Shown one piece after another: positions 36,985-40,622 of a stretch of DNA of 64,000 bases. Below the pieces are notes generated by a model. It searched no databases, was not told where the DNA came from, and saw nothing but the letters and a program-made list of their open reading frames with translations. Position 1 is the first letter of the stretch, and every line of letters begins with the position of its first letter. Source of the DNA: Candidatus Saccharimonadota bacterium (GTDB taxonomy: Bacteria > Patescibacteriota > Saccharimonadia > Saccharimonadales > DTSZ01); NCBI GenBank assembly GCA_012965045.1, contig DTSZ01000001.1:156937-220936 (forward strand), in the 5' to 3' direction. Position numbers and translations under genes: made by a program.

Positions 36985-37311
36985 ATGGTTAACCCTGTTG
37001 CTGTTGCCCGTGTAGAAATCTTAGACGAACATTTTCCCCACTGCGTAGAACCCTACGAACCAGTAGTTTATGCTGCACGATATTTAGCTGTTCTTGCAGG
37101 GAAAGTCATTATTGAAACGGGTAAGAATCCGATACCAGCGAACATGCAAGATATCAAAGCGAGCATGCAAGATATCAAAGGTATATTTGGTGATGATACA
37201 GAGGCTTGGGATGAATTAATTGGACCTTGTTTACGTGATGAAGAATTGTGTGTTCGTGCGGCAAATGTGGCTGAAATTTTAGCGGAGTCCGAGAGGTCTA
37301 TTCATGGCTAA
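36985..37311 (+). CDS. Unknown 108-aa ORF inserted between atpA and atpG (X1)
   Basis: The ATG lies 3 nt after the atpA stop. Its stop overlaps the atpG start by 8 nt. No recognised motif. It contains a 21-nt tandem duplication. Confidence 0.5.
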   Translation: MVNPVAVARVEILDEHFPHCVEPYEPVVYAARYLAVLAGKVIIETGKNPIPANMQDIKASMQDIKGIFGDDTEAWDELIGPCLRDEELCVRAANVAEILAESERSIHG

Positions 37312-38266
37312 CACTCAAGCGATTAAACGTCGAATTACCAGTGTTAAGTCTACCAAACAAATCACTAAAGCTATGGAGTTAGTTGCAGCTAGTAAATTGC
37401 GCCGTGCCCAAGAAGCGTCTAATAAATCACGTGCATATAAAAACTCTGCCCGTGAGATTTTAGCTCGGTTGAGTGAGCTGACTGATGCAAAACAGTTCGA
37501 ACTGTATGAGGAACGCCCTGTCCGTGCACGTCTGTACATAATTTTCACCAGTGACCGTGGGCTTGCCGGTGCCTACAATGCCAACATTTTAAAGATGTTT
37601 TTTAAAGAACTAAAAGCCAACCAAGAAAACGGCGTGGCTACTAAAGCAATTGTTATTGGTAAAAAAGGAACGCAAGTTATTGCGCGGCTTAAAGACGAGG
37701 TAGAGCTAGTTGGTGTTTATCAAGACTGGCCAACATACCCCGCGACGGCTGACTTAAAGCCAATATTTGGCAAGTGTGTTGAATTATTTACCTCTAAAGC
37801 GTCGCAGAATAAAGAGAAAAGAGAAAAGAGTGAGGAGGATAACAGTCTGGGCTCTGAACTCTCTACTCCATCCTCTTCGCGGGTAGACGAAGTGAGGGTG
37901 ATATTTACAGATTACATTAGCAGCATTAATCAAGAAGCCAAATCACTGCAGCTGTTACCGGCGAACTTAACCGACGAAATCGAAGGAGTGCTAGTTGGCC
38001 GCGATATTAATGATTCTGAATTTGAACCAAGCCCACAGAAAGTACTAGAAACCATAGTTCCTCGTTTGACAGAAATCCAGTTGTACCAGTTTGCGCTAGA
38101 AGCCAGCGCGTCCGAGCAGTCTATGCGGATGTTGGCGATGAAGAACGCTAGCGACAACGCGGGAGATTTAATAGATGACTTGCAATTAGAATTTAACAGC
38201 GCCCGCCAGGCAGCAATTACGCAAGAAATTGCTGAAATAACTGGCGGCGTGGCGGCGGTATCATGA
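37304..38266 (+). CDS. atpG: F-type ATP synthase subunit gamma (with a ~28-aa low-complexity insertion)
   Basis: IKRRITSVKSTKQITKAMELVAASKLRRAQ N-terminus and ITQEIAEI..G C-terminus. The extra segment is KASQNKEKREKSEEDNSLGSELSTPSSSR. Confidence 0.9.
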   Translation: MANTQAIKRRITSVKSTKQITKAMELVAASKLRRAQEASNKSRAYKNSAREILARLSELTDAKQFELYEERPVRARLYIIFTSDRGLAGAYNANILKMFFKELKANQENGVATKAIVIGKKGTQVIARLKDEVELVGVYQDWPTYPATADLKPIFGKCVELFTSKASQNKEKREKSEEDNSLGSELSTPSSSRVDEVRVIFTDYISSINQEAKSLQLLPANLTDEIEGVLVGRDINDSEFEPSPQKVLETIVPRLTEIQLYQFALEASASEQSMRMLAMKNASDNAGDLIDDLQLEFNSARQAAITQEIAEITGGVAAVS

Positions 38267-38886
38267 GCGAACAATTTATAGAGCCGCAATTTTTTGAGCC
38301 TATTCCAGGTGACTATACCGCTGTTGATGAATTACGAGATCAGATCGAGGCTTTGATAGGTGAGTCAGTTACGGGTAAAGATTGTGAAGCTCTATTTACC
38401 ATAGTCGATAGGACTCTTGTGGCTCATGAGGACACTTTTACTGCACTTACTAAGGCCGACGCTGATGATATAGACGCTCATTTAAAAACTATTACCGATG
38501 TAGTCAAACATCCTTTTAGAGGAATAGGACGACGAGTGTTTAGCGCTTTCCATGAAGAAGCATATGCGGACGGTCGTTTACGTCTTGATCCTGCTGCAAA
38601 CCCAACTAAGTATCGGTCGCGACCTGAACGCAGGCTGTCTGAAGACAAAAAATTATCTGATGAATTAAGGGATGGGGTTGCTAAGGCAGCTAGATCGATG
38701 ATTGAATCGGCAGCTAGCGAACACGGCATATCCATGCAGGAAATTAAGTACCGGCACCTGGTGTTCGGTGCTGAGGTATGCCTTTGGACGATAGGCCAAG
38801 GATATGCACTTGGCGCAGCGAATAAGGCTGAACCTACGAGGCCCCCGTATTATCAACCAATTACAGTAGAAAACCTGATAGGATAA
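38263..38886 (+). CDS. Unknown 207-aa ORF inserted between atpG and atpD (X2)
   Basis: ATGA start/stop overlap with atpG. It ends 10 nt before atpD, whose aaggag RBS lies in that gap. Acidic, no TM helix, no recognised motif. Confidence 0.5.
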
Positions 38887-38896
38887 AGGAGAAATT

Positions 38897-40294
38897 ATGA
38901 CAACAGCAACAAAGGCAAAACAAGCAGAAGGTAAAATTCAACAGGTAGTTGGTGTGGTGGTTGACATTGAGTTCGACAGCAACTTACCAGCAATTTACGA
39001 CGCAGTGAAAATTGATCACGAAGGCAAAGAGCTACTACTAGAAGTGCAACAACACTTAAGCGCTAAAGCAGTGCGAACTGTGGCACTTGGCTCTACGGAT
39101 GGGCTAGTTCGTGGTCAAAAAGCTGTCGCAACAGGCGCGCCAATTTCTGTACCTGTTGGTAAAGAAACTCAAGGCCGTATGTTTAGTGTTACTGGTGAGC
39201 CTATAGACGGCAAAGCTGGCAAATTCAGCGAATACCGCCCTATTCACGCTGCCGCCCCTGCCCTAAGCGAACAATCTACCAAAACAGAAGTATTTGAAAC
39301 AGGTATTAAAGTTATTGACCTAATTGCGCCTGTTGCAAAAGGCGGTAAAGTTGGCTTGTTTGGTGGTGCCGGCGTCGGTAAGACTGTTTTGATCACTGAG
39401 CTTATTAACAACATTGCCAAAGAACACGGCGGCAGCTCTGTGTTTGCCGGTGTTGGTGAACGTACCCGTGAAGGTAACGACCTATACCACGAAATGGCGG
39501 AATCTGGCGTATTAGATAAAACCAGCCTAGTCTTTGGGCAAATGAACGAACCACCAGGGTCACGTCTACGTGTGGCTTTAAGTGGCCTAACCATGGCAGA
39601 AAAATTCCGCGATGAAGGTAAAGACGTCTTGATGTTTATCGACAACATCTTTAGGTTTACTCAAGCTGGTTCAGAGGTGTCTGCCCTGCTTGGACGTTTA
39701 CCGTCAGCAGTTGGCTACCAGCCGAACTTGGCTCAAGAAATGGGTGCTATGCAAGAGCGTATTACATCGACTAAAAGCGGCTCAATTACCTCTGTGCAAG
39801 CCGTATATGTACCAGCGGACGACCTAACAGATCCAGCACCAGCCACCACCTTCACTCACCTTGATTCAACCATCGTATTAAACCGTGCCTTAACAGAACT
39901 TGGTCTCTACCCCGCTGTTGACCCGCTTGACTCGAACTCTACAATTCTTGACCCACAAATTGTCGGCGAAGAACACTACAATGTAGCGCGTGAAGTTCAG
40001 TCTGTGTTGCAACGTTATAAAGATTTACAAGATATTATTGCAATCTTGGGCATGGAGGAACTATCAGACGAAGATAAACAGACCGTTAACCGAGCACGAC
40101 GTATTCAGCGATTCTTGACGCAGCCGTTTTTTGTGGCAGAGGTGTTTACGGGCAACCCTGGTCAGTATGTTTCGCTTAAAGACACCATTAAAGGCTTCCG
40201 CGAAATCTTAGATGGTAAGCACGACAACCTGAGTGAAAACGACTTTTACATGGTTGGCACGATCGACGAAGCAGTTAAGAAGGGTCAGAAATAA
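38897..40294 (+). CDS. atpD: F-type ATP synthase subunit beta
   Basis: GGAGVGKT P-loop, a DELSEED-like MEELSDEDK, and overall conserved beta-subunit sequence. Confidence 0.95.
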
Positions 40295-40295
40295 C

Positions 40296-40622
40296 ATGGT
40301 CCAAGGGGTTGATGGTATACATAAAAAATTAGCCTGGCTACCCGACGGTGATTGTGCGGATCGCGCATACGAGATTAACAGCATTATTGCGCGAGCTCGA
40401 CGCAACCCTATTATCCCAATAGACTGGCTTGAAAGTGACTTAGCAGCATTGTCTACCGGAAGCACCGATGATGCAGAGAAACTATCAGCAGCAGCTTCGC
40501 TGGCGACTTTTGTAGCATGTTTCGACAGTCAGCTATATTTAGTAGAAGTGCCTGAAGACCCCGAGGAATTAAGAGATAGTTTACAACAGCAAATTGAGAG
40601 AAAGTTTGGTATTGATGTCTAA
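40296..40622 (+). CDS. Unknown 108-aa ORF inserted between atpD and atpC (X3)
   Basis: The ATG lies 1 nt after the atpD stop. Its stop overlaps the atpC start by 8 nt (atgtctaa). No recognised motif. The track ORF start at 40233 lies inside atpD. Confidence 0.5.
   Translation: MVQGVDGIHKKLAWLPDGDCADRAYEINSIIARARRNPIIPIDWLESDLAALSTGSTDDAEKLSAAASLATFVACFDSQLYLVEVPEDPEELRDSLQQQIERKFGIDV

Follow-up and report, generated by a model that had tools for sequence, protein, structure and literature searches.

The F1Fo ATP synthase operon of a Candidatus Saccharibacteria bacterium from hydrothermal-vent metagenomes contains three additional small open reading frames (ORFs), X1, X2 and X3, located exactly at the junctions between the F1 genes atpA and atpG (A/G), atpG and atpD (G/D), and atpD and atpC (D/C). 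The operon is part of a 64,000-nucleotide (nt) stretch of contig DTSZ01000001.1, here called the window, to which the coordinates refer. X1–X3 are probably genuine genes and members of a class of hypervariable "slot" genes found throughout Saccharibacteria, which fill the alpha/gamma, gamma/beta and beta/epsilon junctions. They are typical members of this class by position, geometry and physical chemistry, but not by sequence. The slots hold fast-changing, mostly unique genes in approximately 70% of the related genomes.

Pfam profiles assign the gene order B-E-F-H-A-X1-G-X2-D-X3-C, in agreement with the initial annotation, and all genes are on the plus strand. The Fo/stator half, atpB-atpE-atpF-atpH (33308..35445), contains no inserted ORFs and serves as an internal control. 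It is followed by atpA (35446..36981, TAA stop codon), which encodes the F1 alpha subunit of 511 amino acids (aa) and forms the upstream flank of the A/G slot. The ATG of X1 (36985..37311, 108 aa, isoelectric point (pI) 4.55) is found 3 nt past the atpA stop and in the same frame as atpA, and a GAGGAG Shine-Dalgarno (SD) sequence for X1 is located in the final atpA codons. The TAA stop of X1 is embedded in the start of atpG, ATGgcTAA (37304), resulting in an 8-nt overlap. The Pfam-assigned atpG (37304..38266), encoding the 320-aa gamma subunit, shares an ATGA overlap with X2 (38263..38886, 207 aa, pI 5.11), and the end of X2 is separated from atpD (38897..40294, F1 beta, 465 aa) by a 10-nt spacer that contains AAGGAG. 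The ATG of X3 (40296..40622, 108 aa, pI 4.31) is positioned 1 nt past the atpD stop and is preceded by an SD-like AAGGG. X3 again ends within the start codon region of its downstream neighbour, because its TAA is embedded in ATGtcTAA (40615) of atpC (40615..41052, F1 epsilon, 145 aa, Pfam-assigned), giving a second 8-nt overlap. Internal promoters or terminators in the X1–X3 region were not detected beyond chance, and an Rfam search of this region revealed no RNA. Positions, overlaps and junctions given in the initial annotation are correct to the base according to the ORF list and sequence reads. The same 8-nt overlaps had also been reported for other gene pairs, and the gene table of the contig indeed lists them for carotenoid-gene pairs.

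The proposal that X1–X3 are coding and translationally coupled ORFs, rather than random frames, is supported by stop density, composition and the geometry of the whole class. In comparable junction ORFs, the other two frames of the plus strand contain 7–9 stops per 100 codons, from which simple arithmetic yields a chance of about 1e-4 for an open frame of 108 codons and about 3e-8 for one of 207 codons. The open frames of X1–X3 are therefore improbable by chance. The frequency of G at the first codon position is 0.45 in X1, 0.40 in X2 and 0.41 in X3, and 0.41–0.43 in atpA, atpD and atpC. The region is 99.9–100% identical in five assemblies, obtained from different samples with different assemblers, and thus not chimeric, which removes a concern raised at the outset. 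The sequences of X1, X2 and X3 themselves are identical in all assemblies, strain variants included.

The three products match their first description as acidic, soluble-looking and unrecognisable proteins, because their pI values range from 4.31 to 5.11, transmembrane (TM)-like segments are absent (maximal hydropathy over 19 residues below 1.4) and profile matches are lacking. X1 contains an in-frame 21-nt tandem duplication on the plus strand (37137-37178, 95% identity: NMQDIKASMQDIK), which suggests a recent slippage event that was tolerated by the protein. The peptide (D/E)ELRD is present twice in X2 (38326-38340 and 38659-38673) and once in X3 (40563-40577), and the three sites correspond to a 16-nt DNA repeat with 81–88% identity. 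No further ELRD is found in any of the six frames of the window; X1 contains LRDEE. "DELRD" was considered as a signature of the slot class and rejected, since it is not enriched in the slot ORFs of relatives. Paralogy among X1, X2, X3 and a 382-aa ORFan upstream of atpB was likewise rejected, based on BLASTP and shuffled Smith-Waterman alignments.

All three proteins are ORFans. X1–X3 have no match in Pfam, NCBIfam, PHROGs or PADLOC. These null results cover the DUF1476 (zeta), epsilon, ATP11 and ATP12 families (Pfam-A with E up to 1; NCBIfam), the AtpI/AtpZ/AtpQ/AtpR profiles (Pfam, NCBIfam), PF05635 (Pfam scan), the anti-phage defence models of PADLOC, and nuclease, integrase or transposase domains (Pfam, PHROGs, PADLOC). 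Searches of 5.8 billion proteins with X1–X3 retrieved only self-hits. An exhaustive HMMER search with X2 against 1.84 billion representative proteins retrieved X2 itself and three repeat proteins, one of which is satellite-like (23 weak stretches) and another a PAS-repeat kinase; their scores are sums of many weak stretches and these matches were judged spurious. Sequence and profile searches of the PDB with X1–X3 yielded no match, and no relatives of the three proteins were found in scans of viral contigs. Comparison with the slot ORFs of relatives by phmmer (--max) reached a best E of 0.099, and hhalign of X1–X3 with the largest families of the same slots revealed no match. Missing homologues are expected for old, diverged genes and for recently acquired ones alike, because slot ORFs evolve fast and turn over.

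The slot class was delineated in 160 related atp operons, 80 from species-representative genomes and 80 from metagenomes, which were fetched with a gamma probe. This probe gave more than 470 hits in each collection, of which the 80 best-scoring were taken, near-duplicates included. Nearly all of the fetched operons are from Saccharibacteria, with gamma subunits that are 43–57% identical to the window gamma. The positions of gene starts in these operons are extrapolations from tblastn alignments and may be off by some tens of nt, and for this reason only gaps of at least 90 nt were counted. Such gaps are present at A/G in 64 of 147 operons, at G/D in 91 of 145 and at D/C in 54 of 114. Among the 111 operons in which all three junctions were measurable, three slots are filled in 26, two in 34, one in 20 and none in 31. 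In 86% (A/G), 63% (G/D) and 78% (D/C) of cases, 90% or more of the gap is taken up by a plus-strand ORF, compared with 3–7% for the minus strand.

The coupling geometry seen in the window recurs in the relatives. Approximately 80% of slot ORFs begin between −4 and +10 nt from the upstream stop. At the 3' end, the 8-nt overlap of X1 recurs in 56% of the A/G ORFs, 44% of the G/D ORFs stop 0–30 nt ahead of atpD, as X2 does, and 83% of the D/C ORFs overlap atpC by 1–14 nt, as in X3. The expansion is specific to the F1 junctions within the atp operon, because the atpB-to-atpA span, with its four junctions, hardly varies (median 2098 nt; above baseline in 9 of 99 operons), while 72 of 102 operons have a lengthened atpA-to-atpC span. 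The assumption that bacterial atpAGDC genes are normally contiguous is therefore wrong for Saccharibacteria. Occupied operons are scattered among compact ones in a quick neighbour-joining tree of alpha, gamma and beta. The comparison of synteny suggested in the initial annotation thus shows that the occupancy of the slots by unrelated small acidic ORFs is conserved across Saccharibacteria.

Slot ORFs have a median length of 80–100 aa and a median pI of 4.5–4.7. A pI below 5.5 is calculated for 72–79% of them, but for only 27% of control ORFs from the flanks, and TM-like segments occur in 0–6% versus 23%. Their acidity is confined to the coding frame, and the composition by codon position is gene-like. 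Iterative clustering of 247 non-overlapping slot ORFs produced 27 small families and 173 singletons. At E below 1e-3, and with the family of 23S rRNA intervening-sequence proteins (IVP) excluded, 51 similar pairs share the same junction and none crosses junctions; each slot family is restricted to one junction type, IVP excepted. X1–X3 share with this class the gap-filling plus-strand ORF, the coupling geometry, and the small, acidic and TM-free product, but not sequence homology; position and properties, rather than homology, define the class.

Pfam matches were obtained for only 5 of 108 scanned slot ORFs, four to 23S_rRNA_IVP and one to NYN. The IVP family consists of seven members by sequence clustering, located at all three junction types (L035 3617-4009, L037 3963-4337, L039 1315-1524, L069 6187-6573, L097 2628-3044, L114 491-886 and L140 4885-5295), and the four members that were scanned with Pfam match PF05635. 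The IVP slot proteins are basic, with a median pI of 9.6. The NYN-domain protein occupies an A/G slot (L070 2397-3110), and in one operon the D/C junction is split by a 3.8-kb island (L019 8309-12088), which encodes a Crp-like regulator, a response regulator, a PAS histidine kinase and an unknown protein.

Comparisons between close relatives reveal both constraint and rapid replacement. A 160-aa G/D ORF shared by four operons (L074/L156/L159/L164) shows a ratio of nonsynonymous to synonymous divergence (dN/dS) of 0.17–0.25 with unsaturated dS, an A/G pair (L014/L025) a ratio of 0.11, and the slot cassettes of L034 and L112 ratios of 0.33–0.35; the values are 0.02–0.06 for atpG (0.02–0.05 in the four operons with the G/D ORF) and approximately 0.01 for atpD. 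Slot proteins are thus constrained, and the purifying selection on slot genes in the relatives is weak to moderate. Their amino acid sequences change about 5–10 times faster than that of gamma. Recognisable homology at 80–90% gamma identity is retained in only 3 of 20 A/G pairs, 1 of 19 G/D pairs and none of 8 D/C pairs.

Slot ORFs are also gained or lost between genomes with 85–97% identical gamma subunits. The A/G gap measures 6 nt in L034 and 359 nt in L112 (gamma 97% identical), the G/D gap 507 versus 74 nt in L021 and L027 (91%), and the A/G gap 267 versus 3 nt in L076 and L119 (87%). The difference between L034 and L112 is a clean 359-nt A/G cassette, with edges exactly at the atpA stop and the atpG start, and without repeats. 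Over L034 6001-10100 and L112 4001-8100, nucleotide identity is mosaic, ranging from 87% to 100% in 200-nt windows, and synonymous divergence is 0.03–0.06 in the slot ORFs versus 0.22–0.28 in atpG and atpD. This pattern suggests frequent recombination within the operon.

In the proposed mechanism, ribosomes would reach each slot ORF on the atp mRNA through termination-reinitiation coupling, as predicted from the start at, or a few nt from, the upstream stop. Its own stop would fall in the ATGnCTAA start of the next gene or shortly before the SD sequence of that gene. Because the ORFs are coupled at both ends, every F1 transcript should also give rise to a small, acidic and soluble cytoplasmic protein. 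Slot genes are considered dispensable, since even very close relatives differ by the gain, loss or replacement of clean atp-bounded cassettes. This turnover may proceed by homologous recombination between the conserved atp sequences on either side of the slots; the route is plausible because natural competence and recombination of linear DNA with homology arms of about 1 kb have been demonstrated in Saccharibacteria (PMC10633639).

For the function of the slot products, a role on or with F1 is tentatively favoured over one in a mobile element; they would be non-core proteins that modulate or protect F1 or aid its assembly. This preference is based on the restriction of the slots to F1 junctions, on the slot specificity of the families and on the reality of purifying selection. 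A more specific version, for which the prospects are rather poor, is that the slots encode small acidic proteins that diversify rapidly, bind F1 and modulate or shield the ATPase, with one slot for each neighbouring subunit interface. Such proteins could, although this is equally doubtful, control the reverse, ATP-hydrolysing operation of the enzyme during the epibiotic life cycle, or counter host or phage factors that target F1. If F1 binding were true, the hypervariability would reflect an arms race or host-specific tuning and not neutrality.

Several observations weigh against the assignment of X1–X3 to a slot class with an F1-linked role. Neither the absence of slot genes from 31 of 111 operons nor the extreme turnover of the slots fits such a role well. 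The nearest sampled relative, L087, which is the sister of the window organism in the tree, has a compact operon, and tblastn of X1–X3 against the 160 related operons yielded no match. The initial idea of conserved lineage-specific F1 subunits is not supported, given these two results and the lack of homologues in large protein databases. Any constraint on X1–X3 would have to be extrapolated from unrelated slot ORFs of relatives, and AlphaFold2 single-sequence models, with predicted local distance difference test (pLDDT) scores of 41 for X2 and 47 for X3, are unreliable. The junctions moreover accept arbitrary DNA, as is evident from unrelated passengers such as 23S_rRNA_IVP, NYN and the island with Crp and two-component genes. 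The occupancy counts, finally, only describe the sample, in which the loci are not phylogenetically independent. The initial annotation had regarded absence from related operons, combined with a lack of coding constraint, as damaging; X1–X3 are indeed absent from all related operons, but coding constraint is present in comparable slot ORFs (dN/dS 0.11–0.35).

Many of these observations would also be expected if the slot genes were benign hitchhikers, i.e. passenger or de novo genes without a role for the ATP synthase, which are tolerated, coupled, filtered for harmlessness (soluble, acidic, non-sticky) and shuffled by flank recombination. This explanation is somewhat unlikely but has to be taken seriously. 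It accounts for the extreme diversity (173 singletons among 247 ORFs), for gain and loss between genomes with 85–97% identical gamma, for the compact operon of L087, for the presence of IVP genes at all three junctions, of NYN and of the Crp/response regulator/histidine kinase island in the same slots, and for the tolerated 21-nt in-frame duplication in X1. A polar perturbation of the operon may furthermore be tolerated, because the ATP synthase is dispensable in cultured Southlakia epibionticum (PMC10633639). However, dN/dS values of 0.11–0.25 are lower than expected for merely harmless products, families other than IVP stay in their own slot, and simple hitchhiking leaves unexplained why, on one and the same transcript, ORFs hardly ever occupy the junctions between Fo/stator genes. 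The evidence on X1–X3 is compatible with both an F1-linked role and benign hitchhiking. A third explanation, which is very unlikely, considers the ORFs as translational spacers: bridging translation as such would be selected, tuning the alpha3:gamma1:beta3:epsilon1 output via extra termination-reinitiation events, and the peptide would be irrelevant. In line with this idea, the frames of most genomes are kept open, with tight coupling to both neighbours, and their sequences are hardly conserved. The geometry is also slot-specific: the starts of the low-copy gamma and epsilon genes are overlapped, and the high-copy beta gene is preceded by a spacer with a strong SD sequence. Selection against stops alone does not explain dN/dS values of 0.1–0.25, though, and frame-specific acidity and the lack of hydrophobic segments indicate a constraint at the protein level; in addition, 31 of 111 operons function without any spacer.

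An origin of X1–X3 from mobile elements, homing endonucleases or phages that target conserved atp sequences is largely refuted. The slots are positioned between highly conserved genes, like the free-standing homing endonucleases of T4-like phages, and IVP genes are found at all three junction types in relatives. X1–X3 themselves have no match in Pfam, PHROGs, PADLOC or NCBIfam, which includes mobile-element, phage and defence families, and no relatives in the viral contigs scanned. A nuclease motif was not detected in them, terminal repeats or target duplications around them do not exceed chance, and the non-IVP families are strictly junction-specific. The suggestion of selfish insertions in the initial annotation is directly supported only for a minority of the relatives' slot genes (23S_rRNA_IVP, NYN), and not for X1–X3. 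An artefact, i.e. chance ORFs in non-coding spacers or mis-assembly, could account for the lack of homologues, but is refuted for practical purposes by the agreement of five independent assemblies, by chance probabilities of 1e-4 to 3e-8 for the ORF lengths, by a codon-position composition like that of the atp genes, and by the recurrence of the pattern in the whole class, where the plus and minus strands differ strongly.

Few bacterial gene arrangements are as conserved as those of the atp operons, and here three F1 slots across a candidate phylum hold small proteins that are almost never homologous. No description of this arrangement was found in full-text literature searches. If the slot products act on F1, they would represent a new and unusually plastic layer of ATP synthase regulation, in organisms in which the role of the enzyme is unclear. 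If they are passengers, the slots provide a natural system for studying gene birth, tolerance and exchange inside a housekeeping operon of a reduced, competent genome. For annotation, the "hypothetical proteins" in these slots should be treated as real genes, which homology-based pipelines cannot name.

Two structural subunits of the window operon deviate from the usual length. The gamma subunit contains an extra acidic, Ser-rich segment, KASQNKEKREKSEEDNSLGSELSTPSSSRVDE, encoded at 37796-37891, and comprises 320 aa versus approximately 287 aa in most relatives; long gammas are also found in a few of them (L010, L045, L091, L092 and L094). The delta (OSCP) subunit (35056-35445, 129 aa) matches just positions 49–170 of the 172-position Pfam OSCP profile, and the first 48 or so positions, at the N-terminal end, have no counterpart. 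A short delta may be general in Saccharibacteria, as the atpF-to-atpA spacing is similar in relatives.

The operon is flanked by further ORFans. The acidic 382-aa ORFan, which has no family matches, is encoded immediately before atpB, also on the plus strand (32032-33180), and probably belongs to a separate transcript, because a terminator-like hairpin followed by a T-run (33261-33278) separates it from atpB. A 241-aa ORFan on the minus strand (41490-42215), without match in Pfam or PADLOC, converges on atpC, and a strong 12-bp hairpin between them (41133-41160) resembles a minus-strand terminator. A carotenoid cluster is present on the minus strand at approximately 43745-48900 and encodes a phytoene synthase-like protein, a polyprenyl synthase, a 203-aa unknown protein, an amine-oxidase/CrtI-like protein, a UbiA-type prenyltransferase and lycopene cyclase subunits. 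Genes for G6PD, 6PGD and 6PGL are located upstream of the atp region. Together with the carotenoid cluster, they represent an unusually rich metabolism for this phylum. A pilus (pam) operon of the candidate phyla radiation (CPR) has been reported to be co-located with the ATP synthase genes in a consistent manner (2026 preprint, 10.64898/2026.03.03.709456).

The slot proteins resemble several known systems, but differ from each of them. With the F1 regulators they share a small size, solubility and restriction to a lineage. These regulators include the C-terminal domain of epsilon, the alphaproteobacterial zeta subunit (DUF1476), mitochondrial IF1, cyanobacterial AtpTheta and the C-terminal extension of the mycobacterial alpha subunit, and they have evolved repeatedly to modulate F1. 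Zeta, with approximately 105 aa, is similar in length to X1 and X3. In contrast to the slot genes, which are hypervariable and dispensable, these regulators are conserved within their lineage and are not known to be encoded at the A/G, G/D or D/C junctions. A sequence relation to X1–X3 is not detectable, and any binding of the slot proteins to F1 is hypothetical. Extra small ORFs that are co-transcribed with ATPase structural genes are also known from atpI/uncI, atpZ and atpQ/atpR, of which atpQ and atpR lie within the operon of the N-type ATPase. Their products are conserved membrane proteins encoded beside the Fo genes, whereas X1–X3 lack TM segments, are located between F1 genes and are not conserved.

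The 23S rRNA intervening-sequence proteins (PF05635), which form a four-helix bundle, occupy the same junctions in seven related genomes and move between slots, but they are basic, unlike the acidic slot class, and X1–X3 do not match PF05635. In their population behaviour, the slots are comparable to core-flanked integration hotspots, phage morons and free-standing homing-endonuclease genes, since all of them carry variable cargo at fixed sites amid conserved genes, with presence/absence polymorphism among close relatives and a turnover that probably proceeds via recombination in the conserved flanks. They differ from these systems in that each slot holds a single coupled cistron inside a housekeeping operon, for which an own promoter or terminator, a nuclease or an integrase was not found, and in the restriction of the families to one slot. 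The F1-junction slots thus apparently represent an undescribed variant of core-flanked variable loci.

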